Of a DNA stretch of 64,000 nt, positions 3,007 to 45,659 are shown in pieces (the stretch's first letter is position 1; the number at the start of each line of letters is the position of its first letter). A program made the translations under genes and the position numbers. The notes below the pieces were generated by a model. It worked only from the letters and a program-made list of their open reading frames with translations, was not told the origin of the DNA and ran no database searches. Source of the stretch: a bacterium (lineage in GTDB: Bacteria > Patescibacteriota > Minisyncoccia > Phycocordibacterales > UBA9973); NCBI GenBank assembly GCA_037130655.1, contig JBAXSP010000003.1:68684-132683 (forward strand), read 5' to 3'.

Positions 3007-3030
3007 TATGGTTTTTGTTACAATGGCTAT

Positions 3031-4365: not shown

Positions 4366-4366
4366 T

Positions 4367-6101: not shown

Positions 6102-6104
6102 ATT

Positions 6105-11342: not shown

Positions 11343-11345
11343 AAT

Positions 11346-15258: not shown

Positions 15259-16554
15259 TTAATGAGTGAAAATAATTTGAATTGTTTTGATGATAATTCC
15301 AAGATCGATAAAGAGCGTGTGATTTTTGATATAGAACAAATCGTATTCGAATTTTTCACGAGAGTCCATTATTGAACGAGCATAACGGAATTTGATTTGT
15401 GCCCAACCGGTAAACCCTGGTTTGACGGTATGTCGAAGAAAATAATAGGGGATTTCTTTTTCGAGTCCTTCAACAAATTCAGGTCGTTCCGGTCGTGGTC
15501 CGACAAGTGTAATATCACCACGTAAAATATTTATCATCTGAGGTATTTCATCGATATGAGTTTTTCGAATTATTTTACCTACTTTCGTAATACGATTATC
15601 ATTTTGCGATGCCCATTGCGCACCTGTATTTTCTGCTGATCCGTCTGCGGAAAGTACAATCATGCTACGAAATTTGTATATTGTAAAAAGGTTCTTTTGT
15701 TTGCCTACACGAGTTTGTTTTAGGAATATTTGTTTTCTGTCGTTTATAAAAATGGCAATAGCTGTAATGATTGTAATAGGTAGTGTGATAAGTATGACAG
15801 AGGAAGCAAAAACAATATCGATTAATCGTCTGATAGTTTTTTCAAGAATATTTTCGCGTTGTTCCAATATTTTTATTGCAAGACCATCATCTATCAAAGA
15901 AACAGGGAGCTTAGACAAAATCATTTGAAATGCTTTTTTGATATCGAGATATTGATATGACGATTGCGAAAGTTGCATCAAGTCAGCGGTGTGAATAGTT
16001 TGTATGTAGACAATCGTATCTATTTTTTCTGATGATTGTAGTAATGCATCAAAATCAGTAAACGTTCCTTTGTAGGCATATCCAATGTGCGGATTTTGCT
16101 TGATATTTTCAATAAGGATTTTTGATTCGGGTGTTTCTCCAATGAAGGCAATGTTGTTTTTGAAATTTTTAGCAAAAACGTAATAGAACAAACTTCTCCA
16201 GAGAAATACCAATCCTGCAAAGAGTGCTTGTGTAATCAACAGGTTTGTTTTGGGTGCGATTTGGAATGAAAGAAAGTAAAACAACGTAATACCAGCAAGG
16301 GTGCTAGTCCCAAGTGCCAAAAGAAACTGTCTGAGATTAGTGAAATTTGGTTTGAGTGACGTTGCTTCGTATACATTGAAGATATAGAAAATCACAAAAA
16401 TAAGTCCACCCCAAATACTAAATGGTACAAGGTGTGGTTGCACCATTTGCGGTGCATCATTTATTCCAAAGCGAATAATCAGCATCAAATATCCAGCACC
16501 ACAGAGCATTAGTGCATCACCGAGAAAGAGAAGTGTTTTACGCCAATTTTTCAT
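15259..16554 (-). CDS. Polyprenyl-phosphate glycosylphosphotransferase (WbaP/CpsE-type initiating sugar transferase)
   Basis: C-terminal bacterial sugar transferase domain: KQTRVGKQKNLFTIYKFRSM...DEIPQMINILRGDITLVGPRPERPEF. N-terminal TM bundle. Confidence 0.85.
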   Translation of the reverse strand: MKNWRKTLLFLGDALMLCGAGYLMLIIRFGINDAPQMVQPHLVPFSIWGGLIFVIFYIFNVYEATSLKPNFTNLRQFLLALGTSTLAGITLFYFLSFQIAPKTNLLITQALFAGLVFLWRSLFYYVFAKNFKNNIAFIGETPESKILIENIKQNPHIGYAYKGTFTDFDALLQSSEKIDTIVYIQTIHTADLMQLSQSSYQYLDIKKAFQMILSKLPVSLIDDGLAIKILEQRENILEKTIRRLIDIVFASSVILITLPITIITAIAIFINDRKQIFLKQTRVGKQKNLFTIYKFRSMIVLSADGSAENTGAQWASQNDNRITKVGKIIRKTHIDEIPQMINILRGDITLVGPRPERPEFVEGLEKEIPYYFLRHTVKPGFTGWAQIKFRYARSIMDSREKFEYDLFYIKNHTLFIDLGIIIKTIQIIFTH

Positions 16555-16603
16555 ATGGCTATAGTATACCGTAGATAACTGCGAATGTAGAGTTGCGTAA
16601 AAT

Positions 16604-17632
16604 TTGACGATTTGTATACTTTACGGTGAGATGTTTACTTTTCTCAAGAACAACCGAAGAGCAATAGTGTATACAGTCGCCCTGCTTGGTATCGGCTTTG
16701 TTGTTGGTTATGTTGTCAAACCATCACAAATAGTTTCATCAAAAGCAATCAGAGAAAACACCAATAAGTATACTTTTATACACCCGTTACTCGCAGTAAA
16801 TCGTCAGGATGATACACCTTCTCCGCAATTTAATGATTTGTACAACAGTGTAGATAAGTTGATTGATCAAAAAAAGAAAACAACTTCATTGATTGATTCA
16901 TCGGTGTATTTTATTAGTTACGATAAAAATAACGGGTCTTTTGCGATTAATCAAGATCAAAAATATTCTCCGGCAAGTTTGCTCAAGGTGGTGATTATGA
17001 TTGCATATCTCAAAAAATCAGAAACGTATCAAAATATTTTAAATCAAAAAATTGTCTACACAGCCACTATCGAGCAGACATTGGAAAAGGTTCCTTTTGA
17101 AACACCAAGTAATTTGATGATAGGTCAGTCATATTCTTTTTCTGAGTTGATTAATCGAATGATCGTTGATTCTGATAATGGCGCCAAAAATATTCTCTTG
17201 TCACACATTGAAGATGAGTATCTCAATCAGGTATATAGTGATTTGAATTTGAAAGGCCCAAGTGATAATACTGACTACACTATTTCAGTCAAAGATTATG
17301 CGCTATTTTTGCGAGTACTATTTAATGCCACCTATTTGAGTGATGTTAATTCTGAAAAAGCACTCGCTATATTAAGTAAGGCAACTTTCGATAAAGGGTT
17401 GTCGATAGGGGTTCCGTCGGGTACGGTTATTGCGCATAAATTTGGCGAACATATCAACGGCAAAAACGATAGTATTGATTCTATTGAGTTGCATGATTGT
17501 GGTATTGTGTATTATCCAAAAAATCCATATCTTGTTTGCGTGATGACTCGAGGAAAAGATATTAAGGTGTTGCAAAATACAATCGGAGAAATTTCAAAAA
17601 CAATATATGATTTTGTTTCAAAACAAAATTAA
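16604..17632 (+). CDS. Membrane-anchored serine hydrolase, class A beta-lactamase-like / PBP-like
   Basis: N-terminal TM segment. SxxK (SLLK) and SDN motifs. Degenerate KTG-like motif (HKFG). Confidence 0.6.
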   Translation: MTICILYGEMFTFLKNNRRAIVYTVALLGIGFVVGYVVKPSQIVSSKAIRENTNKYTFIHPLLAVNRQDDTPSPQFNDLYNSVDKLIDQKKKTTSLIDSSVYFISYDKNNGSFAINQDQKYSPASLLKVVIMIAYLKKSETYQNILNQKIVYTATIEQTLEKVPFETPSNLMIGQSYSFSELINRMIVDSDNGAKNILLSHIEDEYLNQVYSDLNLKGPSDNTDYTISVKDYALFLRVLFNATYLSDVNSEKALAILSKATFDKGLSIGVPSGTVIAHKFGEHINGKNDSIDSIELHDCGIVYYPKNPYLVCVMTRGKDIKVLQNTIGEISKTIYDFVSKQN

Positions 17633-18201: not shown

Positions 18202-18217
18202 AACGTACAATAGCTAT

Positions 18218-19498
18218 ATGAAAAATTGGATAACTAAAATGATTATTGCCATACCGTTTGTACCACTCTTGTTTGATGCAAATGTATTTTTCCCTTTTAT
18301 TTCTCCGAAAGTTTTTGTCTTACGTTTTTTTGCTTTTCTGATAGCTGTTTGTATTGTATGGGATTTGTTCGGAGTCGAAAAAGAGTCCGCAATGGAGACC
18401 ATTGGTCGCATTGTCAAAAACAAACTTTTCAAGGTGTATATAGTACTTCTTGGGGTGATTACACTTTCTTCGTTATTTGCTGTTGATGCACACAAGGCGT
18501 TGATGGGGGATATTGAGCGATCAGAAGGACTGATTACACATCTCTGTTTTTCGGTTATCGTTTTTGGTGCAGTCTATGCAATGACCAAAAAAGACTGGAT
18601 CGCTTTTGCAAAATCTACGATTGTTAGTTGTTTTATTTTGTTTGTTTCAATATTGATTCCATATATACATGGAGCTAATCGTCCTTCTTCTTTTGTTGAT
18701 AACCCAATCTTTTTGGCAGCTTATTTTATTTTTACACTCACAGTGAGTGCTCTTTTGTCGACAACCCTGTTGCGTGAAGGTGAACAATGGAAAAGTACTT
18801 TTTGTCTCTGGGGTTTTGTGGGTGTATTACTTTCTTTTTTTGGTTTAATTATCACAGAAACAAGAGGTGCAATTTTGGGGGTGATGATAGGTCTTTTTTC
18901 AACGGGCATTGTATTACTTGTTCGTTCTTGGTCAGTTGTTTCAAAAAAACAAAAAATTATTTTGTTCGCCTCATTGCTACTTTTTGTTTCTCTTGTGCTG
19001 ACTTGTTTGTTTACACCGTTCGGACAAAAAATTCCGGGATTCAAACGATTGTCTGAGTCATCGCATACTGACTTTACCAAAACTGCCCGTTTTTTGAATA
19101 TTGGAATTTCTTTGCAAGCTGTTAATCCAGTGAAAAATGGTATCAAGCCACTGTTGATTGGCTGGGGGCAAGATAATTACAACGCTGCGTGGTACAAAAA
19201 TTATAATCCAAAAGTATACGAAGACGACAAAGCTTCGTTTGACCGTACACACAATAAAATTTTTGATGTGTTGGTAATGAATGGATTGTTTGCACTACTA
19301 CTTTATTTATTTGTTTGGGCACTCATTATTCGTACATGGTTTCGTGCTCCGTTGTACATAGGTTTGCCACTATTTTTCTGGTGTGTCGCGCACTTTATTC
19401 AAAACCTTTTTGCTTTTGAAAGTATCGTAAACTACATACCGTTTTTCTTGGTCGTAGCATTTACTGTGTGGTATCAAATCAATTCATATGAAAAATAA
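18218..19498 (+). CDS. Wzy_C-family membrane protein, copy 2 (paralog of 3031-4365)
   Basis: The FDRTHNKIFDVLVMNGLFALLLY and GWGQDNYNAAW motifs align with copy 1. The same TACAAT-6nt-ATG and ATGAAAAAT 5' end. Confidence 0.75.
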   Translation: MKNWITKMIIAIPFVPLLFDANVFFPFISPKVFVLRFFAFLIAVCIVWDLFGVEKESAMETIGRIVKNKLFKVYIVLLGVITLSSLFAVDAHKALMGDIERSEGLITHLCFSVIVFGAVYAMTKKDWIAFAKSTIVSCFILFVSILIPYIHGANRPSSFVDNPIFLAAYFIFTLTVSALLSTTLLREGEQWKSTFCLWGFVGVLLSFFGLIITETRGAILGVMIGLFSTGIVLLVRSWSVVSKKQKIILFASLLLFVSLVLTCLFTPFGQKIPGFKRLSESSHTDFTKTARFLNIGISLQAVNPVKNGIKPLLIGWGQDNYNAAWYKNYNPKVYEDDKASFDRTHNKIFDVLVMNGLFALLLYLFVWALIIRTWFRAPLYIGLPLFFWCVAHFIQNLFAFESIVNYIPFFLVVAFTVWYQINSYEK

Positions 19499-20102
19499 TA
19501 TTTTACACATACAAATAATAGCTATTCTTGTAATGGTTCTTGCGGGTGTTGTATTTGTCTGTGGTTCACTCATTCCATATATTCAAATGAATCAATACCA
19601 TTCTATTTTGGTAAACGGAGGAAATTTTGAAAATATTTTAGAAAAAGATGCTATTTTTAGTCCGCACACAACTGCAACTGATATGGTCTGTACACAAATA
19701 ATTGGAAATGTTTCGATTCCAATCACAAAGACATTCAATGAGGTTACTCCGGAAATAAAAGCATATGTACCTTTTTTACAAAATGTATTGTTACGTTGTA
19801 GCGATACTCTTACAAAAAGCACTGATCCAGTAGATAGATTTTTGATTAGTACTATTTATATGTACCTTGGAAATATTACAAATGAAAAAGTTTATTTTGA
19901 CAAAAGTGATGCTTTGATAAAAAGTATTTTTGATCAATCTCCTAAACGTCAACCGTTTGTTGAGTTTGCTGGAGTAAATTCATTTTTCAAAAGAGATTTT
20001 GTGAATGCAAAAAAACAGTTTACAGAAGCATTGAAAACAAATCCGAATTCTCGACAGGCGACATACTATCTAAATACCATCAATAGTTTCGGTATAAAAT
20101 AA
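19488..20102 (+). CDS. Membrane-anchored TPR-like partner protein, copy 2 (paralog of 4367-5254)
   Basis: N-terminal TM helix plus IPYIQMNQYH (cf. VPYIQMVQWK) and a C-terminal helical-repeat region. Confidence 0.6.
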   Translation: MKNNILHIQIIAILVMVLAGVVFVCGSLIPYIQMNQYHSILVNGGNFENILEKDAIFSPHTTATDMVCTQIIGNVSIPITKTFNEVTPEIKAYVPFLQNVLLRCSDTLTKSTDPVDRFLISTIYMYLGNITNEKVYFDKSDALIKSIFDQSPKRQPFVEFAGVNSFFKRDFVNAKKQFTEALKTNPNSRQATYYLNTINSFGIK

Positions 20103-20128
20103 GTTTTCATATGGTATAATAAAACCAT

Positions 20129-20218
20129 ATGAAAGGAGGAATTGCTTCAGTTTTATTGAAATATGTCGCACTGATTGGTGTAGGTGTGTTGTTGTGGTGG
20201 ATAGTCACACTGAAGTAA
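20129..20218 (+). CDS. 29-aa hydrophobic small ORF (MKGGIASVLLKYVALIGVGVLLWWIVTLK)
   Basis: TATAAT at 20115-20120 lies 8 nt upstream of the ATG. A 13-bp perfect hairpin follows immediately. Too short for the ORF track. Confidence 0.35.
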   Translation: MKGGIASVLLKYVALIGVGVLLWWIVTLK

Positions 20219-20229
20219 TTATTGCCAGC

Positions 20230-20275
20230 AAAGGGCCGATTCTACTCCGTAGAATCGGCCCTTGTCATTTTCCTA
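20230..20275 (+). terminator. Strong hairpin GGGCCGATTCTAC-TCCG-GTAGAATCGGCCC plus T-rich tail (terminator and/or part of rplJ leader)
   Basis: Perfect 13-bp inverted repeat followed by TTGTCATTTTCC. Confidence 0.55.
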
Positions 20276-20418
20276 TTTTTCCTATATAGTATTTTCCATA
20301 ACGCCGTAGAAAGAAGACAGGGTTTTACCCAGAGGATCTTCCGAGGTATCTCACAAATCATAAGGATTTGGATACGGACGTTTGGTCGAAAACCAAAATA
20401 AAAAATTATGCTAGCATT

Positions 20419-20907
20419 ATGGCTATTTCAAAAGATAAGAAAGTAGAAATTGTAGCGAAATTGGAAAAAGCAGTTGCTGATGCACAATCAGTGGTGTTTG
20501 TTCAATTTCACAAATTGACAGTATCTCAAGTAAACACACTTCGCCGTTCTCTTCAAAAAGAAGACGTCGGATATACGGTGGCTAAAAAGACACTTATCAA
20601 GCGTGCATTTGATACAAAAGGATATGAAGGGGAATTCCCTGAACTTCCTGGAGAAATCGCAATCGCGTACAGTAAGGATCTTCTAGCGCCAGCACACGGT
20701 GTCTACGATTTCATGAAGGAGAACAAAGATGTTCTAACTATTGAAGGAGGAGTATTCGAAGGAAAGTATTTGAGTAAAGAAGAAATGATGGCAATCGCAA
20801 CAATTCCAGGAACGCAAACACTTCGCGGAATGTTCGTTAATGTTATCAACTCTCCAATTCAACGATTTGTTATTGCTCTCGACAAGATTGCAGAAACAAA
20901 AAACTAG
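20419..20907 (+). CDS. rplJ: 50S ribosomal protein L10
   Basis: MAISKDKKVEIVAKLEKAVADAQSVVFVQF... has the L10 N-terminal domain signature. Start placed at the internal Met of ORF-track 20368. Confidence 0.85.
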   Translation: MAISKDKKVEIVAKLEKAVADAQSVVFVQFHKLTVSQVNTLRRSLQKEDVGYTVAKKTLIKRAFDTKGYEGEFPELPGEIAIAYSKDLLAPAHGVYDFMKENKDVLTIEGGVFEGKYLSKEEMMAIATIPGTQTLRGMFVNVINSPIQRFVIALDKIAETKN

Positions 20908-20965
20908 TGCCTGAAAGTCACGTAAAAAACTTTTAATAAATTATAAATTGTAACTAAAAAATATT

Positions 20966-21352
20966 ATGGAAGAAACAAATTTCGAAGTACCAGCAAAATT
21001 TGCTGATATCGTAAAAACTATCGAACAAATGTCAGTTATCGATTTGAATGAATTGGTAAAGACATTCGAACAAAAATTTGGTGTTTCTGCAGCAGCTGTT
21101 GCAGGACCAGCAGTAGCAGCAGGACCAGCAGCTGAAGAAAAAGATTCATTTACTGTTGTTCTATCAGCAGCAGGTGAACAAAAAATCGCTGTTATGAAAG
21201 CAGTTAAAGAAGCGCTTGGACTCGGTCTTAAAGAAGCTAAAGACCTCGTAGATGGTGCACCAGCAACATTGAAAGAAGGAATGAAGAAAGACGAAGCTGA
21301 AGCTCTTAAAAAAGCTGTTGAAGAAGCAGGAGGAAAGGTTGAGTTGAAATAA
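20966..21352 (+). CDS. rplL: 50S ribosomal protein L7/L12
   Basis: Ala-rich hinge, C-terminal domain [19 protein letters not shown]...[10 protein letters not shown]. Confidence 0.9.
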
Positions 21353-23300: not shown

Positions 23301-23329
23301 TTGACTTCAAATCTTGATTGAGATATACT
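23301..23329 (+). promoter_or_regulatory. Sigma70-type rRNA promoter TTGACT-17nt-TATACT (second TTGAC-containing candidate ~55 nt upstream)
   Basis: Consensus-like -35 and -10 hexamers with a 17-nt spacer, ~140 nt upstream of the 23S 5' end. Confidence 0.65.
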
Positions 23330-23469
23330 CGCCCTTGTATTCTTTGAAAAAGTAAACCCGCCCTCCGCTCCTTTCATTAGGGGTCTTTTCAAGAATGGAG
23401 AGGCGGATAAAACACGATGTACACAACGAAGCGGTTCTGCGTGTACATCGTTTAGGAAAGTGGTTTTTA

Positions 23470-27046
<3,577 letters not shown>

Positions 27047-27412: not shown

Positions 27413-27465
27413 TTTTTTCTTATAACTTAAATCTTTAATCTAAAAAATTATGCTATAATTTTTTT

Positions 27466-28248
27466 ATGACTTGGGCAAATCGTCACCGCGCAGTATATCT
27501 CGCAGGACTTCTTCTGGTAATCGCAGGAGCAGTCTATTTGACGATTCGTCCATATATCAATGTCGCTCCAACTTGTTTTGATATGAAGCAAAACGGTGAC
27601 GAAGCTGGTGTTGATTGTGGTGGTGGATGTGATTTGTATTGTCCATCACAAATCAAAAATCCTGTCGTCTTGTGGAGTCGTTCATACAAAGTAACTGACC
27701 AGATTTATAATGCCGTTGCGTATATAGAAAACCAAAATCCAAACGCAGTTACTTCACGACTTGAGTATGTGTTTCGTTTGTACGATGAAAACAATATTCT
27801 CATTGCTTCTCGAGAAGGAGCAACAACACTTGCTCCAAATGGTAGACAAGTAATTTTTGAAGGTGGTATTTCGGTTGCCGATCACACACCAAAGAGAACA
27901 TCATTTTCAGTTACCAATAGTCCAATTTGGTACAAAAATACTACATCGATTGCCAGTCTGCCGATTCGTATTGAAGATGTTCGTGAACCAATTGATTTAA
28001 CCAGTCCAAAAGTGACAGCTACGGTCAAAAATATTGGCCTGATAAAACTCCCTCCGTTTAAGGTTTCTATTATTGTGACTGATGAAGAAAATAATGTTGA
28101 GGCAGTGTCACAAACATTGGTAGATGAAATCAATCCCGACGGTTCATTTCCGGTGGTGTTTACTTGGCCATATGCTTTTTCAAGTAAACCGCTTCGATAT
28201 ATTATCGAACCAATCGTTGATGTGCTTTCTTTGCCGAAACTAAACTAA
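27466..28248 (+). CDS. Hypothetical membrane-anchored protein with Cys-rich segment
   Basis: N-terminal TM helix, CGGGCDLYC motif. Extended -10 TGCTATAAT 6 nt upstream of the ATG. Confidence 0.5.
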   Translation: MTWANRHRAVYLAGLLLVIAGAVYLTIRPYINVAPTCFDMKQNGDEAGVDCGGGCDLYCPSQIKNPVVLWSRSYKVTDQIYNAVAYIENQNPNAVTSRLEYVFRLYDENNILIASREGATTLAPNGRQVIFEGGISVADHTPKRTSFSVTNSPIWYKNTTSIASLPIRIEDVREPIDLTSPKVTATVKNIGLIKLPPFKVSIIVTDEENNVEAVSQTLVDEINPDGSFPVVFTWPYAFSSKPLRYIIEPIVDVLSLPKLN

Positions 28249-29490: not shown

Positions 29491-29576
29491 CGATAAATTC
29501 AGTGCTAGAGAAATAATCCTCCATTTTTCCTTTATTTTTTTAGTGTTCAAGACATAATTTTGATACAATAAATGGA

Positions 29577-30059
29577 ATGTTCAATTTCCTTTTCTCATTA
29601 TCAAAATATCCACTGATCGCAAAGAGTGCATTATTCATTTCGTATCCATTTGCTTATGTCGCACCTGTTATAATCGTCGTTTTTCTTTTGGTAAGAAAAC
29701 AGCAAAAAATGGCCACTTTTTCTTTATTATTTTTGACAGGATTTTTTTCTTGGATATCTGCAAGGGTAATTAAGAATATGTTCCATACAGTCAGACCATA
29801 TATTGAGCAAAACGTAGTACCATTATTTTATGAACCAGGATATAGTTTTCCATCAGAGCATGTCACTATTTTCACTGCTTTGAGCGTGGCGGTATTTTTC
29901 TTGCACAGGAAATGTGGAATAGTTTTAGGTGTCATTACTATTTTAATAGCAATTTCAAGAATCATTATTGGTGTCCATTATCCGATCGATATTCTCGGGG
30001 GATTTGTACTTGGAGGAATAATCGGATTTTTATTAGTTAAGGTATTTAAAAATATATGA
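29577..30059 (+). CDS. PAP2-family phosphatase (undecaprenyl-diphosphate phosphatase-like)
   Basis: PAP2 motifs KxxxxxxRP (KNMFHTVRP), PSEH, SRxxxxxHxxxD (SRIIIGVHYPIDIL). Confidence 0.75.
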   Translation: MFNFLFSLSKYPLIAKSALFISYPFAYVAPVIIVVFLLVRKQQKMATFSLLFLTGFFSWISARVIKNMFHTVRPYIEQNVVPLFYEPGYSFPSEHVTIFTALSVAVFFLHRKCGIVLGVITILIAISRIIIGVHYPIDILGGFVLGGIIGFLLVKVFKNI

Positions 30060-30835: not shown

Positions 30836-30858
30836 TAATGTGTTATAATAATTTCTAT

Positions 30859-31650
30859 ATGAAAAAACAAAGATTGATACTTTTTGGTACCGTATTGTTG
30901 TTAGTTATAATTACTGTCTATCTTTTACATTCCAATTCTATTTCTAAATCGACACAACCGAACAATCTAGCTGCAGCAGCAGTTGGCTCTTGTCCATATG
31001 GCTGTAGTCCAAGTAATTTTACTGAAACAGTAAAAGCAGTGAGTCAAAATAGTGTAATTCTTTCTACAAGCTTTGCTAATCAGAACTATTCCAATTTTCC
31101 AAATACTCCAACATCCATTTATTTTAGTTATGACAAAGTAAATAATCCTCAAAGTACTAATGGTTTTGGGTATAATCAATATGTTAATAAAACAAAAAAT
31201 ACTGACTATCTCGGTTCAAATATAACTGCCACTGCGGTATTGAATGGTTTAGAGCCTGATACAACATATTATTGGGGATATAATGCATTGATAAAAATAA
31301 ATAAAAGTATATATCTTACTTTTCCAAATAGTTTTGAATTCACAACTCTTGCTCCTCAAGCTGACACTCTTAACGCAAATAAAATAGGCAAAACATTCGC
31401 CACGATCAATGGAACAGTAAGTACTTCAATGCAAACACTGCAATTTAAGTATGGAACAAGTTCTGGAAGTCTGACAAAAATGGCAGTAGCAACTGGATTT
31501 ACTCCACTCGTCGCTTCCCCTGTTTCTGCAATGATTATTGGACTTACTCCAAACACTACTTATTACTATCAACTTGTTGGAACGTGGACTGGAGCTGCAG
31601 GAACAAAAACAGCAGCAGGACAGATACTGAGTTTTAAAACATTGCCATAA
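30859..31650 (+). CDS. Secreted protein with two fibronectin-III-like repeats
   Basis: Signal/TM MKKQRLILFGTVLLLVIITVYL. Repeats LEPDTTYYWGYNA and LTPNTTYYYQLVG. Start at the internal ATG to avoid overlap. Confidence 0.55.
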   Translation: MKKQRLILFGTVLLLVIITVYLLHSNSISKSTQPNNLAAAAVGSCPYGCSPSNFTETVKAVSQNSVILSTSFANQNYSNFPNTPTSIYFSYDKVNNPQSTNGFGYNQYVNKTKNTDYLGSNITATAVLNGLEPDTTYYWGYNALIKINKSIYLTFPNSFEFTTLAPQADTLNANKIGKTFATINGTVSTSMQTLQFKYGTSSGSLTKMAVATGFTPLVASPVSAMIIGLTPNTTYYYQLVGTWTGAAGTKTAAGQILSFKTLP

Positions 31651-31740
31651 AGAACATATAAATTCTAACTTAGCAATGGCCACAAACGTACGTTTGTGGC
31701 CATTGCTTTTTACGCTAAAAGCCTATAAAATAGTCCTATT

Positions 31741-33093
31741 ATGTGGAAAATCAGAACAGTTTCGTTAATACTTATTATTCTTGCAGTGGGTGTCGGTTTC
31801 TTTGTTTATAAGAGTGAGGTTTCAGGAAGTAAAAGATATGGTTTTCACCAAGGTCTCGACCTGAAAGGTGGAACACATCTTATCTATAGTGCAGATGTTT
31901 CTCAAATCGCAAAAGAAGATGTTCGTTCATCAATGGACGCACTTCGTGATGTGATTGAACGTCGTGTCAATTTGTTTGGTGTTTCAGAACCTGTTGTGCA
32001 AATACAAGAAGGTGGTTTTACTAATGGTGAACAATTGATTGTTGATTTGCCTGGTGTGACTGATGTTGAAAAAGCAACAGCTATGATCGGCCAAACTCCT
32101 TTACTTGAATTCAAAACTGAAAATCCAAAACCAGGAATGGCAGAATTGAAAGTTGGTGCAGATGGAAAAGCAACACTTGATCCACAAGAATTACAAGATG
32201 CAAAATACATCAACACAGCATTGACTGGACGATATTTGAAAAAAGCGTATTTGGAATTTGACCCAAATACTCGTGAACCTCGCGTCAGTGTGCAATTCGA
32301 CGATACTGGTTCAGCATTGTTCGAAAAGATTACCAAAGAAAATATCGGCAAAACAGTCGCTATTTATCTCGATGGTGCACCTATTTCTACACCAGTTGTT
32401 CGTGAAGCAATCTCTGGTGGACGTGCAGTCATTTCAGGAAATTTCACTCCGAACGAAGCAAAATTGTTTGTTGGCCGTTTGAACTCTGGTGCACTTCCAG
32501 TGCCAATCTCTTTGGTTTCTACTGAATCAATAGGTGCGTCTCTTGGGGAACAAGCAACACATGATGGAGTCAAAGCAGCATTGATTGGATTTCTTGCCGT
32601 CGCACTCTTCTTGATTTTCTGGTACCGCCTCCCTGGATTGATTGCAATCTTGGCACTTTCTATCTATGTATCAATTATGCTCGCATTATTTAAATTGGTT
32701 CCGGTTACTTTGACTGCTGCTGGTATTGCTGGATTCATTATTACAATCGGTACGGCGGTTGATGGAAACATCCTCATCTTCGAACGTATCAAAGAAGAAA
32801 TCCGTGCAGGTAAAACAATTGCTGATGCAATCAAGGCAGGTTTTGAACGAGCATGGTTTTCTATTCGTGACTCAAACTTGGCGTCTATTATCTCAGGACT
32901 TATTTTGTTCTGGGTTGGTACACCACTGATGAAAGGGTTTGCATTGACACTAGTCATCGGTATGATCGTCTCTTTGGTTTCAGCTGTTTCAATCTCAAAA
33001 GCATTTATGTACTCACTTCGTTTTACAAAAAACACCAAGTTTACAAAGTTCCTCTTTGGGTCGGGTTTTTCTTTTAACCAAAAAAATAATTAA
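31741..33093 (+). CDS. secD: Protein translocase subunit SecD
   Basis: N-terminal TM, large periplasmic domain, C-terminal 6-TM domain with LTLTAAGIAGFIITIGTAVDGNILIFERIKEE. Confidence 0.85.
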   Translation: MWKIRTVSLILIILAVGVGFFVYKSEVSGSKRYGFHQGLDLKGGTHLIYSADVSQIAKEDVRSSMDALRDVIERRVNLFGVSEPVVQIQEGGFTNGEQLIVDLPGVTDVEKATAMIGQTPLLEFKTENPKPGMAELKVGADGKATLDPQELQDAKYINTALTGRYLKKAYLEFDPNTREPRVSVQFDDTGSALFEKITKENIGKTVAIYLDGAPISTPVVREAISGGRAVISGNFTPNEAKLFVGRLNSGALPVPISLVSTESIGASLGEQATHDGVKAALIGFLAVALFLIFWYRLPGLIAILALSIYVSIMLALFKLVPVTLTAAGIAGFIITIGTAVDGNILIFERIKEEIRAGKTIADAIKAGFERAWFSIRDSNLASIISGLILFWVGTPLMKGFALTLVIGMIVSLVSAVSISKAFMYSLRFTKNTKFTKFLFGSGFSFNQKNN

Positions 33094-33999: not shown

Positions 34000-34036
34000 T
34001 TATTTAAAAAAACACTAGCATTAGCTGGTGTTTTTT
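34000..34036. terminator. Bidirectional terminator between secF and the NUDIX gene
   Basis: AAACACTAGCATTAGCTGGTGTTTTTTTT with A-tract upstream. Confidence 0.6.
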
Positions 34037-34461
34037 TTAAATAAAATAAAAAAAGAAGCAGCCTTTAGGACTGCTTCGAGTAATAGATCTCTGATTAATT
34101 TACGATGAGAACTTTTGACTTTTTCAGTAGAATCCAATTGATCTTCAGCTATCCAGAATGCTCTTCTGATCTCTGGATCAACAGGTGTTAATTCTGTAAG
34201 TTCTTCCATTTTGAGTTCGATGCTATACACTTTCATGTATTTAATAGGTCTTTTGACCAAGAATTGCATGTCGATAGTGACACCAGCTTCTTCGTAAAAT
34301 TCTCGCTTTGCTGACTCAAGGAAGGTCTCTCCTTTTTCTTTTGTGCCTCCAGGGAGACAAATTTTTCCATTAAACTCTTCTACGAAAAGAAAATGACGTA
34401 ATCCGTTAAGATCTGTTGAGTGTGCAATAATTCTGCACGTTTTATAACAAGGTTTTCCCAA
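34021..34461 (-). CDS. NUDIX hydrolase
   Basis: Nudix box GGTKEKGETFLESAKREFYEEAGV. Confidence 0.8.
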   Translation of the reverse strand: MGKPCYKTCRIIAHSTDLNGLRHFLFVEEFNGKICLPGGTKEKGETFLESAKREFYEEAGVTIDMQFLVKRPIKYMKVYSIELKMEELTELTPVDPEIRRAFWIAEDQLDSTEKVKSSHRKLIRDLLLEAVLKAASFFILFKKNTS

Positions 34462-34628
34462 AATATTTATAGGTTTATTAAGTACCTACTCCTCATATAG
34501 TATACTATATTAATATTATTTTTGTCAATACTTATATCGTTGATGCATTTTTACCCTAAAAAACCTTATTTTTCAATGTCCTTGCCTGTTATCTAGAGTC
34601 TGGGCTTTCTTTTTGCTATAATTAAGGC

Positions 34629-35357
34629 ATGAAAAACATCATCAAAAAAACAACATTCTTTATCGGACTTTTTGCTCTAATTGGCTCTTTGCACACTGTA
34701 TCAGCTGCTACAGATAAGTGTATTTCCGTAAATCCCGGTAGTTCAAAATCTGCCAATGCAGAAGCGGTGCTTACTGGTAGTACGAACATGAATATTGCCA
34801 ATTTCAACTTTAATGTGAATGGGGATACTTCACTCGCTTGTGCCGGTGTAACCATCAAAAAAATGTCTTTTGCTATTGGTAGTAAAAACCCAGTATCAGT
34901 CAAAAATATTACACTCGTAACTTCAGGTGAAAATCAGATTACACTTTCAGGTAACACAATCAAAGACACGACTACTTTCATTTTCCCTGAAAATTATTTT
35001 GTAAAAACTGGCGAATCAGTTCACTTGTCTCTTGTTGCTGATACTGGAAAGACTACAAGTAATACTTCTGGACAACTGCAAGTGTATTTCAAATCAATGG
35101 ACCTTGTGGATACATTAACAACTAAAAAAGTTGTTAGCCCAAAGTCAGTGAGTGATGATTTGAAATTGTTGGTGTTGAATGATGTTGATCAATATATTTT
35201 TAAGTCACTTTCACGAATCCGTAACCAAGTTCGGATAATAGAATTGACCGGAATGAAAGGGTACTCATTTTGTATTGATGATAAAAACACTATTCCAAAA
35301 CTATTGAAGTACAGCGCAAAGAACGCTATTGATAAAAAAACAAACATGTGTCGCTAG
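34629..35357 (+). CDS. Secreted protein sharing an N-terminal domain with the giant surface protein
   Basis: Signal peptide. FNFNVNGDTSL...VTIKK / NITLVTSGENQITLSG / SLVADTGKTT parallels FTFNGNGTLSQVTLKR / NVYLFDGNMRVTDG / SVKADMAASNT at 1-300. TGCTATAAT 6 nt upstream of the ATG. Confidence 0.55.
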   Translation: MKNIIKKTTFFIGLFALIGSLHTVSAATDKCISVNPGSSKSANAEAVLTGSTNMNIANFNFNVNGDTSLACAGVTIKKMSFAIGSKNPVSVKNITLVTSGENQITLSGNTIKDTTTFIFPENYFVKTGESVHLSLVADTGKTTSNTSGQLQVYFKSMDLVDTLTTKKVVSPKSVSDDLKLLVLNDVDQYIFKSLSRIRNQVRIIELTGMKGYSFCIDDKNTIPKLLKYSAKNAIDKKTNMCR

Positions 35358-37773: not shown

Positions 37774-38499
37774 GTGTTTTTAGTAGCGATGTTCTATAAT
37801 GAAATCGTTATGTCACACCAAGGAACTGTTTGGGAAAAAGAATATCGGCAACCAAAATTGGTTACCAAAAAAGACGGACCGCAAGCTGATACGGTTCGTT
37901 TTTTGAAATTTTTGAAAAAGGAAGAAAAATTCAAGGTTGAAGATTGTAGTGTGCTTGATATTGGTTGTGGTACTGGGCGCAATGCCAACTATTTGGCAGA
38001 ACTTGGAAATACGGTGATTGGTATTGAAATTTCATCAACCGCAATTGCACTTGCAAAAGAACGTGCAAAAGCATTGGATGTGACAGTCGACTATCGTTTG
38101 GGTGATATTGGTGAGCCATACCAAATTGATGACAATTCAATCGATGTTATTTTGGATGTTACTGCTTCAAATTCACTCGATGAAAAAGGGCGTGCTACAT
38201 ATCTCAAGGAAATGCACCGAGTACTCAAATCAGGTGGATATATTTTTGTCAGAGCGTTGTGTAAAGATGGCAACAAGAACGTTAAAAATCTTTTGAAAGA
38301 TAGTCCAGGAAAAGAAAAGGATACGTATATTTTGAAAGAGATTGGTCTAACAGAACGTGTATTTACCAAAGAAGACATTCGCACACTCTATGGAGCCTAT
38401 TTTGATATTTTGCAATTAGAGAAAAAAACTGGATATAGCACCTTCAATGACCGAATTTATAAAAGAGATTATTGGTTGTTGTATCTCAAAAAAGCGTAA
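37774..38499 (+). CDS. Class I SAM-dependent methyltransferase (TehB/TPMT-like)
   Basis: Motif I VLDIGCGTGRNANYL, motif post-I, VILDVTA. True start may be the internal ATG at 37810 (TATAAT 37795-37800). Confidence 0.75.
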   Translation: MFLVAMFYNEIVMSHQGTVWEKEYRQPKLVTKKDGPQADTVRFLKFLKKEEKFKVEDCSVLDIGCGTGRNANYLAELGNTVIGIEISSTAIALAKERAKALDVTVDYRLGDIGEPYQIDDNSIDVILDVTASNSLDEKGRATYLKEMHRVLKSGGYIFVRALCKDGNKNVKNLLKDSPGKEKDTYILKEIGLTERVFTKEDIRTLYGAYFDILQLEKKTGYSTFNDRIYKRDYWLLYLKKA

Positions 38500-38848: not shown

Positions 38849-38875
38849 TCTTCACAAATTTGTTATAATATAAAA

Positions 38876-39247
38876 ATGAATAAACAAGATTTTTCTATAA
38901 TTAAAAGAACCAAGAGTTTTTCTCACGCATTTCGTGGGATAGGTATCTTGCTGAAGACTACACCCAATTTTTGGTTGCATATTCTTATCGGTACCGTTTT
39001 GGTAATACTCGGTGTCCACTATCACATTGCTCATTATGATTGGATGTTTCTACTGCTCTCAATCGGATTGGTGTTGGTAACTGAAGCAGTTAATACGGCT
39101 ATTGAAATTGACATTGATCTGACCTCGCCGGAATATCATCCCTTTGCCCGTGACACCAAAGATGTAGCAGCGGGGGTGGTACTCATTTCTGGATTTATTT
39201 TACTTGCTGTATCAATCATTATTTTCTTACCGAAGATTGTTGGATAA
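38876..39247 (+). CDS. dgkA: Diacylglycerol / undecaprenol kinase (DgkA family)
   Basis: TEAVNTAIE motif, 3 TM. TATAAT 38864-38869 lies 6 nt before the ATG. The ORF-track start 38846 would include the promoter. Confidence 0.8.
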   Translation: MNKQDFSIIKRTKSFSHAFRGIGILLKTTPNFWLHILIGTVLVILGVHYHIAHYDWMFLLLSIGLVLVTEAVNTAIEIDIDLTSPEYHPFARDTKDVAAGVVLISGFILLAVSIIIFLPKIVG

Positions 39248-39295: not shown

Positions 39296-40312
39296 TTAAT
39301 CTGTCTGACCAAAAACCGGTTGTGGTAGTTCAGTCTTTTTTCTTTTTGCCAACCAACTATCGATTGAAAGAAAACCTCCGCCTTCGATTGCGACAATTGC
39401 CAAAATACTAAAGAGTGATACGTGTGACGCAACAGACTCTTTGAAGAAGAAGAATGAAAACGATAGCACAACGATTGCCACACAAGCGGTCGTGCGAGTG
39501 AAGAATCCGACAAAAATACAAAGTCCGACAAGGATTTCAATAATCGCAACTGCAAGCACCCACATTGCTGGTGATACTGGAATGACATGATTGAGTCCGT
39601 ATGCTCGCACCACTACATCAGAGACGTGTGGGTTGAGCAGTTTTTCATAGATTGCCAAATAGGTCATTGCAATACCTACGCCTGCACGCATAATCGGTGC
39701 GAGCCAGTGACGTTTGATATGAATAAATCGTAGTAATGAAATACGCAAAATATCATCTACTCCTGGGCGTGCGCTGTGGAATACCAACACACCGATTGCA
39801 AGTGCGAAGATATCAAGATTGCCGATCAAGTATGAGGTGTGAAAGAGGGCAATGATATAGAGTCCAAGTGTTGTCAGTACAGCTGGGACAAGTGCAAATC
39901 CAACCAAGAAGAAAAATCCAAGGAAGATTTCAAGTACACCAAATGCTTCACCGTGTGGAATAATTGGTGAAATGAGTGCATGTTCGGTACCAGCACCAAT
40001 CAGTGCAATACCGAGTCCAAGTCGAATAATCCATGGAATAAATTCATGATATGACGCAAGGATTTGTTCAGTGATATCAAAAAACTTCCGCACAGGTGGT
40101 GTGCGACGAAGCAAGAATGCAAGTCCGATGGTGATACCTGCAACGCCAATCATCAAGCTCACATAGAGTGGATTGTGAAAGACTTGGAGAAAATAAGACC
40201 AATCAGTCCCACCAAATTTTTCAAAGGTACCTTCGGGTGCCACATATGCAATGTGCGCAGAAGAAAGGAAGGGAAGTAATAATGAAGTAAGAATCGCAAT
40301 GTATTTTTTCAT
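39296..40312 (-). CDS. DoxX-like polytopic membrane protein
   Basis: 338 aa, ~8 TM, with an internal duplication of a DoxX-like 4-TM unit. Confidence 0.5.
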   Translation of the reverse strand: MKKYIAILTSLLLPFLSSAHIAYVAPEGTFEKFGGTDWSYFLQVFHNPLYVSLMIGVAGITIGLAFLLRRTPPVRKFFDITEQILASYHEFIPWIIRLGLGIALIGAGTEHALISPIIPHGEAFGVLEIFLGFFFLVGFALVPAVLTTLGLYIIALFHTSYLIGNLDIFALAIGVLVFHSARPGVDDILRISLLRFIHIKRHWLAPIMRAGVGIAMTYLAIYEKLLNPHVSDVVVRAYGLNHVIPVSPAMWVLAVAIIEILVGLCIFVGFFTRTTACVAIVVLSFSFFFFKESVASHVSLFSILAIVAIEGGGFLSIDSWLAKRKKTELPQPVFGQTD

Positions 40313-40348
40313 ATACTTCTATTGTAACAAATATCTATTTGAGAGAGT

Positions 40349-41101
40349 GTGATTTTACATGATACAATGATTCTAATGACCTGGATACTCCAACGACATA
40401 AACATATCTATCAGCGACGTTGGCATGTTATTTTCGCGTTGATAGTAATTGCGCTTCCACTCATCTTTTTTGCATTCTTTGCTCACTTGGCACACATAGA
40501 GACGGCGGTAATTTATGCAGATATTGGGTCATCGCTCTTGCGTCTGTTTATTGCATATATCATTGCCACAATTCTCGGCTGGACATTGGCAGTAATGTTT
40601 TATCGTGGACGTGGTTCAAATATCGCACTGCCTGCATTTGATGTGCTCCAGAGTGTGCCGACATTTGCCGCGCTTCCGATTGCGGTGCTGACATTCGGCA
40701 AAAGTAACGGACTGATTATTTTCTTTCTTGTTCTTGCAATCATCTGGCCAGTGTTTTTCAGTGTATTGTCTTCGCTCAAGATGATCAAAGGTGAATATCA
40801 CGAAGCTGTGCAAATCTATGGACTTCGCGGTTGGAAGAAATTGAAACTCTTCGTGATTCCAGCTAGTATTCCAGGACTGATCACTGGTTCAATTGTCGGA
40901 CTCGGCGATGCATGGGAAGCTTTGGTTACGACGGAAATTATTGTTGGTATCGGCACCGGATTCGGTGCATTCTTCCAGCAATTTTCGAATGATTCCAAAA
41001 TGACGATTATCGGTATCATTGGACTACTCATGATTATTTTCACCATTAACAAAATGATTTGGCTTCCACTGTTAGAGAAAAGTCATTCACTTGCCGAATA
41101 A
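40349..41101 (+). CDS. ABC transporter permease (NitT/TauT-family, SsuC/TauC-like)
   Basis: 6 TM. Conserved loop ALPAFDVLQSVPTFAALPIAVLTFG. The ATPase gene follows. Confidence 0.75.
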   Translation: MILHDTMILMTWILQRHKHIYQRRWHVIFALIVIALPLIFFAFFAHLAHIETAVIYADIGSSLLRLFIAYIIATILGWTLAVMFYRGRGSNIALPAFDVLQSVPTFAALPIAVLTFGKSNGLIIFFLVLAIIWPVFFSVLSSLKMIKGEYHEAVQIYGLRGWKKLKLFVIPASIPGLITGSIVGLGDAWEALVTTEIIVGIGTGFGAFFQQFSNDSKMTIIGIIGLLMIIFTINKMIWLPLLEKSHSLAE

Positions 41102-41880: not shown

Positions 41881-41885
41881 TAATG

Positions 41886-41973
41886 CGGAACCGGCGAGAT
41901 TCGAACTCGCGAGGGTTTTTACACCCTGCCTCTTTAGCAAAGAGGTACGTTAGACCACTCTGACACGGTTCCA
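41886..41973 (-). tRNA. tRNA-Ser (anticodon GCU), type II
   Basis: Minus-strand fold: acceptor GGAACCG/CGGTTCC, anticodon loop TTGCTAA, long variable arm, T-arm GCGAGTTCGAATCTCGC, discriminator G. Confidence 0.8.
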
Positions 41974-42040
41974 ATTCTCGTATCATAGCAGAATTTAAGG
42001 GCTTTTTCTATGACAAATTATTTGCTATACTCTGCGGAAC

Positions 42041-42127
42041 GGAGGATTGGATGAGTGGTTTAAATCAACGGTTTACTAAACCGTCGGCTCGTAAAAAGGC
42101 CCGTGAGTTCGAATCTCACATCCTCCG
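42041..42127 (+). tRNA. Type II tRNA (Ser-like: 3-bp D-stem, long variable arm, G73). Anticodon reads ACU by manual folding, which is unusual.
   Basis: Acceptor GGAGGAT/ATCCTCC, anticodon stem ACGGT/ACCGT with loop TTACTAA, T-arm GTGAGTTCGAATCTCAC. TGCTATACT extended -10 at 42023-42031. Confidence 0.65.
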
Positions 42128-42296
42128 CAAAATAGGAAGTCACTGGAAGTGACGACCATGTTTTGCGCAGTACACAAACAAGGAACGAAGTGACTATGTT
42201 TTGCCTCCGCAACGAAGACAGTTTTATCGGCAGAACCCGAGTGTTTAGAAGTATGGAGTGGTCCGATTGCTATAATCTTGATATCTAAGCTAAAAT

Positions 42297-42800
42297 ATGA
42301 CCATGGAACAATTTCCTAAGAAAATAGAAAGTAAGGAAAGCTCTACTTTTGAAACAAAGATTCTTTCGCGTGATGATTTGGTAGATTACATCTACAAAGG
42401 ACAGTCTCTTCCTCAAGATACTCGTTTTCTAGATGTTGAAAAAGGTGGAGTATTTAAGTATTTTCATCTAGAAGATATCGTCGGAATAAATTCTTACTCA
42501 AAAGAGCAGAAATTGTTTCCCTTGGTGGAAACAGAGGGAGTAATTGCTGGACTTGCCGAACTTGAACAAGACCCTAATGATTCAAATAACTTTTGGATCA
42601 AATTTGTTTCTATTGATCCTAAATTCCAGGGGAAGGGATATGCTTCGACACTTATTAGTAAGATTTTTGATTTTGCCAAAGAAAATAATTATTCACTAGA
42701 ACCATCTTTTTATTCAGAGGAAGGCGAGAATAAGTTAAAAGAAGTAATGGAAAAAACCGAAAGAGAAACAGGGGTAAAAGTTGTGCGAAAGTATCAGTAG
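42297..42800 (+). CDS. GNAT family N-acetyltransferase
   Basis: Motif A FQGKGYASTLISKIFDFAKEN. Confidence 0.7.
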   Translation: MTMEQFPKKIESKESSTFETKILSRDDLVDYIYKGQSLPQDTRFLDVEKGGVFKYFHLEDIVGINSYSKEQKLFPLVETEGVIAGLAELEQDPNDSNNFWIKFVSIDPKFQGKGYASTLISKIFDFAKENNYSLEPSFYSEEGENKLKEVMEKTERETGVKVVRKYQ

Positions 42801-42936: not shown

Positions 42937-43710
42937 CTATTGCTGAATAACGGATTTCTGTTTTTTGATAGTATAAACAATTAATCCAATCAAGACTGCA
43001 AGTAATACTGCTGATGAGCCGATAGTACCAAATCCAAGCCCTCCCTTGTCAGGAGTTTTGGTGAGTACATCACCGACGGTTGCACCGAATGGACGAGTGA
43101 GAATGAAGGCGATCCAAAAGAGGAGTACGCCAGAAATCTTGGTAGCGTATTTCAGGATAACAGTAACCAAGATCAAACTACCGACAAGCAATGCTCCTCC
43201 AGCAAATCCAAGTCCGGAGTTATGTGCGAGAAAATCTCCGAGGGCTGTGCCGAGTGTGTTTGAAAACAAGATTGCCATCCAATAAAAAATCTCGCCTTTC
43301 TTTGTTTTTATTTCAGTCACAGAAATAGATTTTTCGGTAAAATACCAAAGACCTAAAATAATAAGTAAGAGACTAATAAGAATCGCTGTTCCTGTGGCAT
43401 AACCAAGTCCAAGTGTACGATCCATAAAATCTGACATTGTCGTACCTGCCGTACTTGTTGCAAGAATCACCGTCCAGTATAGTGCTGGGTTGTATCGTTT
43501 TGATTTCAACTGAGCAACGAGCGCAAGAATAAAAATACCGAAGAGAAAAATAGAACTAAGTGCATAGCCAATATTGAGTGTCATTGAAAATAAATCTCCG
43601 CCGGTTTCTCCAAGTGTTGTCGCTGCTATTTTCATAATCCAGAAAAGAATCGTAATTTCTGGTAATTTATTTGATATGTTGTTTGTAATGGTGTTCATAC
43701 GGTCCATCAT
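42937..43710 (-). CDS. Polytopic membrane protein with four internal (T/A)LG(E/D)xxxD repeats
   Basis: ILFWIMKIAATTLGETGGD, TLGLGYATG, TALGDFLAH, ATVGDVLTK. Confidence 0.5.
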   Translation of the reverse strand: MMDRMNTITNNISNKLPEITILFWIMKIAATTLGETGGDLFSMTLNIGYALSSIFLFGIFILALVAQLKSKRYNPALYWTVILATSTAGTTMSDFMDRTLGLGYATGTAILISLLLIILGLWYFTEKSISVTEIKTKKGEIFYWMAILFSNTLGTALGDFLAHNSGLGFAGGALLVGSLILVTVILKYATKISGVLLFWIAFILTRPFGATVGDVLTKTPDKGGLGFGTIGSSAVLLAVLIGLIVYTIKKQKSVIQQ

Positions 43711-43765
43711 AACACTTCTTGTATCAATGGTACATTACAAAAATCTTTGTGATAAAATCTATCTT

Positions 43766-44437: not shown

Positions 44438-44618
44438 TTTTTGGGTAATTCACAGCTATTAGGTACATTGCTATTACTATGGTATAGTGTTTGAGTAAGT
44501 TCGATTTGTCTATTTGTGCCAACTATTCTCTCAGCTAAGCGTTTAATCGTAAGTTCGAAAAAGGTGTCCACTGGTGTCAAATTACTTACGGTTATTATTT
44601 AGTTTATATTTTTTGCAT

Positions 44619-44936
44619 ATGTCAAACAAATTGTTCGTAGGATCCCTAGCTTGGGCTACTACAGATGAAACTCTTGGAGCACACTTTGCTTCAGCTGGTA
44701 CAGTTACTTCTGCTCGTGTTGTCAAAGACAAAATGAGTGGTCGTTCACGTGGATTCGGCTTCGTTGAAATGTCTTCTGTTGAAGAAGCACAAAACGCAGT
44801 TAATTCATTGAATGGAACTGAACTTGATGGACGCGCAATCACTGTATCTGAAGCACAACCACAAACAGAACGTCCAGCTCGTACTGGAGGATTCGGTGGT
44901 GGAAACCGCGGAGGATTCGGTGGTAACCGTGAATAA
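44619..44936 (+). CDS. RRM-domain RNA-binding protein with Gly-rich tail
   Basis: RNP-2 LFVGSLAW, RNP-1 RGFGFVEM, C-terminal GGFGGGNRGGFGG. Confidence 0.8.
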   Translation: MSNKLFVGSLAWATTDETLGAHFASAGTVTSARVVKDKMSGRSRGFGFVEMSSVEEAQNAVNSLNGTELDGRAITVSEAQPQTERPARTGGFGGGNRGGFGGNRE

Positions 44937-45641: not shown

Positions 45642-45659
45642 GGTATACTTTTATTATAT

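Follow-up and report, generated by a model that had tools for sequence, protein, structure and literature searches.

In the 64,000-nucleotide (nt) stretch of bacterial DNA analysed here (GenBank assembly GCA_037130655.1, contig JBAXSP010000003.1, positions 68,684-132,683 of the forward strand; hereafter the window), an extended -10 motif stands directly before the start codon of most genes that open a transcription unit and is nearly absent before the other genes, which begin close to the preceding stop codon; Shine-Dalgarno (SD) sequences are almost missing before both, and box, spacer and ATG are kept in relatives. This layout very probably reflects leaderless expression of first genes from abutting extended -10 promoters, together with SD-free downstream cistrons and a few leadered exceptions. 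The positions of the transcription starts, the mode of ribosome loading and reinitiation are what we infer from this arrangement.

The evidence begins with 65 genes curated by hand, comprising 37 that are first in a transcription unit and 28 that are internal; a codon-usage score separated short open reading frames (ORFs) too weakly, and Pfam matches and hand curation were used instead. A TANNNT hexamer ending 6-8 nt before the start codon (spacer 6-8) was found at 23 of 37 first genes versus 3 of 28 internal genes, and its TGn form at 14 of 37 versus none of 28; several curated starts were picked with the promoter in view, which makes these counts partly circular, whereas the spacing and blind-rule tests given below are free of this problem. 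An earlier sequence-only reading had listed eleven such sites, and both hexamer and spacing were confirmed exactly at all of them, including the index site with TG (27451-27452), c, TATAAT (27454-27459), tttttt and ATG (27466). The TGn extension is present wherever it had been written, and also at four sites that had been taken for plain hexamers: 20129 (TGg), 38876 (TGt), 43766 (TGa) and 57869 (TGt). The layout is indeed pervasive, since pattern search and curation added about 16 further modules, at 16554 (-), 16631, 30859, 31741, 37810, 40312 (-), 40376, 42303, 43698 (-), 44619, 45660, 50325, 51993, 62323 and 63480 (-) and at the tRNA-Ser gene 41972 (-). All 25 protein-coding modules start with ATG, as do 63 of the 65 curated genes. 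As a list of leaderless genes, the original eleven need narrowing, because site 20129 opens an ORF of only 29 codons and the tRNA promoter (spacer 9) is not leaderless in the translational sense. The modules are as follows (coordinates, strand, box with its spacer, gene).

3016-3033 (+): tgtTACAAT, 6 nt, ATG; Wzy_C/O-antigen-ligase-like gene 3031-4365, terminator hairpin immediately 5'
16552-16571 (-): cggTATACT, 8 nt, ATG; sugar transferase 15259-16554, which opens a 9-gene polysaccharide operon
16612-16633 (+): TATACT, 10 nt, ATG; beta-lactamase-family gene, start revised to 16631
18203-18220 (+): acgTACAAT, 6 nt, ATG; second Wzy_C gene, 18218-19498
20112-20131 (+): tggTATAAT, 8 nt, ATG; hydrophobic 29-codon mini-ORF 20129-20218, followed by a terminator
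27451-27468 (+): tgcTATAAT, 6 nt, ATG; CARDB-domain gene 27466-28248, then an FtsW/RodA gene joined by TAAtATG
29561-29579 (+): tgaTACAAT, 7 nt, ATG; PAP2 gene 29577-30059
30841-30861 (+): tgtTATAAT, 9 nt, ATG; start probably 30859 (MKKQRL...) rather than 30838
31723-31743 (+): TAAAAT, 9 nt, ATG; secD, 31741-33093
34614-34631 (+): tgcTATAAT, 6 nt, ATG; hypothetical gene 34629-35357
37792-37812 (+): TATAAT, 9 nt, ATG; methyltransferase gene, start revised to 37810
38861-38878 (+): tgtTATAAT, 6 nt, ATG; diacylglycerol kinase 38876-39247 (123 amino acids)
40310-40329 (-): tgtTACAAT, 8 nt, ATG; DoxX/HTTM gene 39296-40312, sharing a 63-nt spacer with the divergent promoter of 40376
40360-40378 (+): tgaTACAAT, 7 nt, ATG; ABC permease, start 40376
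41970-41990 (-): tgcTATGAT, 9 nt to the mature 5' end; tRNA-Ser(GCU)
42023-42043 (+): tgcTATACT, 9 nt to the mature 5' end; tRNA-Ser(ACU)
42288-42305 (+): TAAAAT, 6 nt, ATG (42303); GNAT gene, ambiguous, with TGcTATAAT 20 nt before an alternative ATG at 42297
43696-43714 (-): tgtTATGAT, 7 nt, ATG (43698); DUF347 gene
43750-43768 (+): tgaTAAAAT, 7 nt, ATG; uracil-DNA glycosylase 43766-44437
44602-44621 (+): TATATT, 8 nt, ATG; RRM RNA-binding protein, start 44619
45641-45662 (+): tggTATACT, 10 nt, ATG; pilM, which opens the type IV pilus operon
50307-50327 (+): tggTATACT, 9 nt, ATG; response regulator, with box, spacer and ATG kept in the related locus L001
51977-51995 (+): tgaTATACT, 7 nt, ATG; pilC
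57854-57871 (+): tgtTAGAAT, 6 nt, ATG; NAD-dependent DNA ligase (ligA), 57869-59896
60390-60407 (+): tgcTAAAAT, 6 nt, ATG; gatC, with 24 nt identical in L001 and a diverged flank
62306-62325 (+): tgtTATACT, 8 nt, ATG; gene 62323-62979, within a 139-nt inverted repeat
63478-63497 (-): tgtTATACT, 8 nt, ATG; gene 63094-63480, on the opposite arm of the inverted repeat

The -10 hexamer of a bacterial promoter spans positions -12 to -7, and the canonical +1 is the seventh base after it; a spacer of 6 therefore puts +1 on the A of the ATG. For TAnAAT boxes the spacer is mostly 6-7 and for TATACT boxes it is 7-10, and it is from this geometry alone (a 6-nt discriminator length) that we infer transcription starts. 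At roughly two thirds of the transcription units, where 6-7 nt separate the hexamer from the ATG, transcription would begin at the A of the AUG, and in a second group, mostly TATACT with the hexamer 8-10 nt away, a leader of 1-3 nt would be expected (e.g., 5'-AUAUG). The proposal that transcripts begin at or within 1-2 nt of the AUG agrees with promoter geometry, except that spacers of 8-10 widen the range slightly. Primary transcripts would be leaderless or nearly so, and a ribosome carrying initiator tRNA would load directly on the 5'-terminal AUG; at downstream cistrons, which almost always have U at -1, terminating ribosomes would reinitiate. Long, A/U-rich and SD-less leaders would be the exception, for the 23S rRNA and probably for rplJ and the major pilin, whose upstream regions provide the contrast.

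23301-23329 (+): full TTGACT-17-TATACT promoter, about 140 nt 5' of the 23S rRNA; leadered stable-RNA transcript
20219-20421 (+): SD-less region of about 200 nt 5' of rplJ (start 20419), probably a leader
53202-53431 (+): upstream region of the major pilin, whose start (53429) lacks a -10 box at the right distance; transcript probably leadered, with an A/U-rich and SD-less 5' untranslated region (5'UTR)

The -10 box of the 23S promoter (window 23324-23340) is followed by a G+C-rich discriminator (TATACTcgccc), which resembles stringently controlled rRNA promoters elsewhere. An Rfam search for an L10 leader 5' of rplJ gave no credible match, and the fold of this region is mildly stable (z = -1.8).

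The simplest objection is that TAnAAT-like hexamers near ATGs are expected in DNA of 38% G+C with A/T-richer intergenic regions, and that matches had merely been picked out. The raw scan that the sequence-only reading had proposed, when run on the window, showed no enrichment (28 TANAAT-N5-8-ATG matches versus 22.9 ± 4.7 in 200 dinucleotide shuffles), and the count for TGNTANNNT-N5-8-ATG was 22 versus 14.9 ± 4.1, half of the raw motif matches falling inside genes or opening tiny ORFs. A generic -35/-10 scan of the window was also flat (58 versus 57 in shuffles), although such a scan is uninformative in A/T-rich DNA. The raw count was dropped as a test because shuffling disregards gene position; taken alone, it would have led to a wrong rejection of the leaderless idea, as the signal is positional and becomes visible only when tied to gene starts. 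When TANAAT spacers were counted to ATGs that open ORFs of at least 90 amino acids, eight were found at spacer 6 and seven at spacer 7, with about 1.1 in each other bin. A blind rule, under which each ORF of 120 amino acids or more starts at its first ATG (64 starts in the window), was chosen to avoid circularity; under this rule, TGNTANNNT (TGnTAnnnT) occurs at spacer 6-8 in 10 of 64 starts versus 0.26 expected (p = 3e-13), and TANNNT in 20 versus 6.5 expected (p = 1.5e-5). The same blind-rule peak recurs in a comparison set of 80 related loci (1.25 Mb), with 21 versus 1.5 expected in twelve close relatives, counted apart, and 57 versus 6.2 expected in the other Parcubacteria loci, the mode being spacer 6. 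Box, spacer and ATG are moreover kept in orthologous promoters while the flanks diverge, and an origin of the pattern by chance is hardly credible.

The window LigA has 92% identity to one metagenome-assembled genome (MAG) from the Candidate Phyla Radiation (CPR), locus L001, and about 60% to Candidatus Nomurabacteria MAGs, and nearly all of the best 80 related loci belong to Parcubacteria/Patescibacteria; judged from these sequence matches, the host is a member of the CPR/Patescibacteria, within Parcubacteria and close to Nomurabacteria. L001 has the gatC box, spacer and ATG unchanged base for base next to a diverged flank, and the response-regulator module is likewise kept base for base with diverged flanks. 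At larger distances, gatC orthologues of 27-41% identity have TANNNT at 6-8 nt in 13 of 22 cases, and at least 10 ligA orthologues carry TGnTAnnnT with spacer 6. Relatives that carry pilC or ligA as an internal gene lack the box there and have a stop codon right next to the ATG.

With regard to its identity, the hexamer-aligned sites have T at -17, T at -15 and G at -14, each in 20 of 25, and no -35 consensus, which suggests a sigma-70 promoter of the extended -10, -35-independent class with the probable consensus TnTGnTA(t/c/a)A(A/C)T. Both tRNA-Ser genes carry this element too, 9 nt 5' of their mature ends. Intrinsic terminators are abundant (34 versus 12.7 in shuffles), and several stand directly 5' of these promoters; the window also contains two back-to-back divergent pairs, 40312 (-)/40376 (+) and 43698 (-)/43766 (+), and in divergent pairs the entire intergenic spacer is only 55-76 nt. 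These features bear on a different interpretation, in which the TAnAAT-like element belongs to a longer 5'UTR and serves there as an A/U-rich, non-SD motif for ribosome binding or enhancement (the group B or Bacteroidetes type) and transcription starts further upstream. Such an interpretation could draw on the -20 to -1 region of all genes, which is about 79% A+T and lacks an SD, on the leadered rplJ and pilin genes, whose upstream regions are also A/U-rich and SD-less, and on T at -1, which is common to first and internal genes and points to a start-proximal signal at the level of translation. A ribosome-binding motif should, however, precede internal genes too, where both TANNNT (3/28) and TGn (0/28) are rare; TG at -15/-14 is typical of promoters, as is T at -17, tRNA genes are never translated, the terminators right 5' of several sites leave no space for another promoter, and the divergent spacers are short. 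The restriction to first genes, the extended -10 TG and the presence before tRNA genes therefore identify the element as a promoter rather than a ribosome site, and the ribosome-binding alternative is quite unlikely.

The promoters might also be genuine while the adjacent ATGs are unused, translation beginning at a downstream codon so that ordinary short leaders resemble N-terminal coding sequence. Start codons are indeed predictions, the 20129 ORF has only 29 codons, and a few starts are ambiguous (42297/42303, 60328/60307 and TTG 34461). On the other hand, orthologue alignments begin at residues 1-5 (73/81 matches for LigA and 23/31 for GatC), the proposed N-termini lie 4-17 residues ahead of the Pfam domains, and LigA and GatC have the same starts in a gene call made independently on a Logan contig. 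A fixed box-ATG distance of 6-8 nt would have no explanation if the ATG were unused, and no SD precedes any downstream candidate, which makes downstream starts very improbable. Errors in the opposite direction were real: as had been suspected, several starts in the ORF list were too long, with 38846 corrected to 38876, 40349 to 40376, 43574 to 43766, 30838 to 30859 and 43710 to 43698, and at least 6-9 genes of the window have a longest-ORF start from which the frame runs across the promoter. In its long form (start 43574), the 43766 gene would overlap its divergent neighbour by 137 nt.

The NUDIX gene 34021-34461 (-) is an outlier among the ATG starts: it has no ATG before codon 65, and its only plausible start is TTG 34461, preceded by TATACT at about 38 nt and by GAGGAG at about 30 nt, the latter being too distant for an SD.

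The claim that the adjoining -10 box leaves no room for an SD also proved correct. SD tetramers (AGGA, GGAG or GAGG at -20 to -4) precede only 1 of the 65 curated genes versus 3-10 of 65 in control windows, and under the blind rule 2 of 64 genes in the window and 4 of 188 in the close relatives. The metric works, because it scores 83% on the control contig L075 (labelled Aminicenantes, non-CPR-like). All 28 internal genes start between -13 and +16 nt from the preceding stop codon, and 22 of them between -4 and +8. The commonest junction, found six times, is TAAtATG with a 1-nt gap; TAAcATG occurs once and an ATGA overlap three times.

4363-4369 (+): SD-less TAAtATG junction (stop, 1 nt, start); likewise at 5256, 28250, 47421, 48439 and 54499, with TAAcATG at 56649

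Tight stop-start gaps without an SD make termination-reinitiation the most likely mode of translation for internal genes. T at -1 is found at 24 of 28 internal genes and 50 of all 65 curated genes, versus 28% of all ATGs, and under the blind rule at 23 of 26 internal genes in the window, 51 of 66 in near relatives and 155 of 295 in the rest; this preference is not merely the context of a UAAU stop because it is independent of gap length. T(-1), followed in the window and in loci L001-L009, is strongest in this lineage (77-88% of internal genes) and reaches 53% in more distant Parcubacteria.

A further possibility is a mixed regime, in which upstream promoters or read-through also transcribe many of the genes, leadered SD-less transcripts carry much of the expression, and the leaderless form is one route among several. 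The second TGcTATAAT box 20 nt 5' of the alternative ATG 42297 of the 42303 gene, first genes that lie only 26-60 nt after the preceding gene without an obvious terminator, and the leadered SD-less genes that do exist here (rplJ, pilin and internal cistrons) would all fit this idea. Strong terminators precede several promoters, however, and the box-ATG distance, kept even in distant relatives, implies that the leaderless form itself is under selection; such a regime is accordingly given a low probability.

Several observations weigh against leaderless expression as the general rule. In addition to the partial circularity of the curated counts and the flat raw and generic scans, a -10 box close to the start is missing from about 10 first genes. 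The spacing itself varies, the ligA spacer being 9 in the 92%-identical L001 but 6 in the window, and together with the TATACT class this means that some transcripts would have to carry leaders of 1-4 nt, whereas E. coli translates mRNAs with 1-4-nt leaders poorly. The state of the anti-SD is a further point. The 16S 3' end is absent from the window, so that anti-SD loss in this genome is only a possibility, and among the 80 loci only L022 carries one. Its tail has an intact CCTCC, and the ligA promoter of this locus is of the leaderless type too, so that the architecture can exist without anti-SD loss. An exact-protein look-up for a linked 16S gene gave no match for gene 62323 and only an 8-kb Logan contig for LigA; an identical LigA is present in run SRR12676975. 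Leaderless first genes with SD-free downstream cistrons are still preferred, and a bolder extension is tentatively considered, at somewhat less than an even chance: the lineage might be wholly SD-free, with every start set either by a promoter-made 5'-terminal AUG or by a stop-proximal 'U-AUG' reinitiation site, and U(-1) might be a determinant of start context. The U at -1 might pair with A37 of the initiator tRNA.

Beyond start sites, the window (38% G+C, standard code 11) contains a polysaccharide cluster, rplJ-rplL, secDF, a type IV pilus cluster, ligA and gatCA. TGA recoding was considered, as TGA stops are rare (3/49), yet it fuses no genuine genes and code 11 was kept. The 23S rRNA gene (23475-27043) exceeds the Rfam bacterial model by about 640 nt; its insert contains a sub-threshold group I intron match at 26505-26702 (42.6 bits, E = 1e-8), and a Pfam search of ORFs within the insert found no match. 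No 16S gene lies upstream of the 23S gene or elsewhere in the window; because none precedes the 23S gene, the rRNA genes are unlinked in this genome, and this, like the long 23S gene with its insert, agrees with the CPR affiliation. The rplJ-rplL region (19488-21352) has no rplK-rplA upstream in the window, where the preceding genes are a Wzy_C-family and a hypothetical gene; this is consistent with, and no proof of, the uL1-lacking subgroup of Parcubacteria, which overlaps the anti-SD-lacking one.

Just 5' of the rplJ region lies a mini-gene (20112-20270) composed of TGgTATAAT, 8 nt, the 29-codon hydrophobic ORF (MKGGIASVLLKYVALIGVGVLLWWIVTLK) and a strong intrinsic terminator. The two tRNA-Ser genes are divergent, with anticodon GCU at 41885-41972 (-) and ACU at 42041-42128 (+) (loop UUACUAA); the latter has A34, which is unusual in bacterial tRNA-Ser. 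Judging by their 9-nt boxes, pre-tRNA-Ser leaders would be only 1-3 nt. A 139-nt inverted repeat (62190-62328 and 63475-63613; 97% complementary) brackets two convergent genes (62323-62979 and 63094-63480), and a Pfam search of both gave no match. Each arm has 7-nt units in an array (TAATGAC/TAGTGAC), followed by a terminator hairpin (AAAAGTGCGAAGCC...GGCTTCGCACTTTT), by a heptad array in mirror image and finally by TGtTATACT, 8 nt and ATGGAA; a third copy of the heptad-terminator module is located between the two genes (62980-63093), and CCTARNN heptads occur 5' of pilC in L001. The Wzy_C paralogs 3031-4365 and 18218-19498 have near-identical terminator-promoter-start modules (cccgaaaggg...TACAATnGCTATATGAAAAAT), and two glycosyltransferase junctions, 6088-6107 and 11340-11360 (-), share the identical sequence TTAAAATATAAATTATG; these shared modules and junctions suggest duplicated cassettes in the polysaccharide region. 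Near the window edge, an ORF for a helicase C-terminal domain (63610-63930, -) begins directly after an in-frame stop and lacks an in-frame N-terminal DEAD domain; this may be a DEAD-box helicase gene that is split or frameshifted, or one that continues past the edge in another frame.

CPR/Patescibacteria represent a large share of bacterial diversity and have reduced ribosomes, and the way in which they recognise mRNAs has been left open; leaderless first cistrons, combined with reinitiation at packed downstream cistrons, are a suggested answer. If true, the wholly SD-free reading would be the functional counterpart of anti-SD loss in about half of Parcubacteria and would represent a bacterial regime akin to those of haloarchaea and mitochondria. 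In practice, the promoter-ATG module helps gene calling to recognise small genes such as the 29-codon ORF, and the TnTGnTAnAAT-N6-ATG cassette offers a ready expression signal for genetics in these organisms. A search of the available literature found no paper that ties leaderless mRNAs to the gene architecture of Parcubacteria or CPR, only a passing mention that YchF is retained in CPR.

The arrangement in the window is a leaderless architecture of the GeneMarkS-2 group C type, a kind already known but apparently undocumented in this lineage. Leaderless group C genomes, such as those of Actinobacteria and Deinococcus, are recognised by a Pribnow box located 6-8 nt from the starts of first genes (PMC6028130). 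As in M. tuberculosis and D. deserti, which represent this group in Actinobacteria and Deinococcus-Thermus, the -10 box here lies 6-8 nt from the AUG of many operons and leaves no room for an SD; however, internal and leadered genes of group C use SD sequences, whereas SD tetramers precede 1 of 65 genes here, and the present case also differs in its low-G+C CPR host, in the TGn extended -10 without a -35 consensus and in the TATACT subclass with spacers of 7-10. In its absence of SD across genes, it resembles haloarchaeal regimes more than group C. Archaea of group D (Haloferax, Sulfolobus) similarly have mostly leaderless transcription units, SD-free downstream cistrons and tight or overlapping junctions, but rely on TATA/BRE elements about 26 nt upstream and other initiation factors, in contrast to the sigma-70-type -10 box at 6-8 nt. 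Bacteroidetes (group B) share the near absence of SD and the A/U-rich sequence before starts, but have leadered mRNAs and a motif before internal genes too, whereas here the motif looks like a promoter and is confined to first genes.

The promoter itself is like the extended -10 (TGn/TRTGn) promoters of E. coli and Gram-positive bacteria, with T at -15, G at -14 and T at -17 and with a -35 element that seems weak or missing; there, the transcription start is normally followed by a 5'UTR with an SD, whereas here the promoter sits on the start codon. Termination-reinitiation is established in archaea and bacteria (PMC6728339), and the internal junctions of the window resemble this coupling in having stop and start codons overlapping or a few nt apart (ATGA, TAAtATG) without a downstream SD; unlike the usual overlap, the commonest form here is a 1-nt gap with a very strong U(-1) (24/28 curated, 23/26 blind), and the coupling here is putative. 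Finally, the anti-SD motif has been detected in only 48% of Parcubacteria, in which SD helices were inferred not to form (Tsurumaki et al. 2022, PMC9297842). That study of the same group analysed rRNA and ribosomal proteins, whereas the present analysis concerns the start-site architecture of the mRNAs, in which the absence of SD is the expected counterpart.

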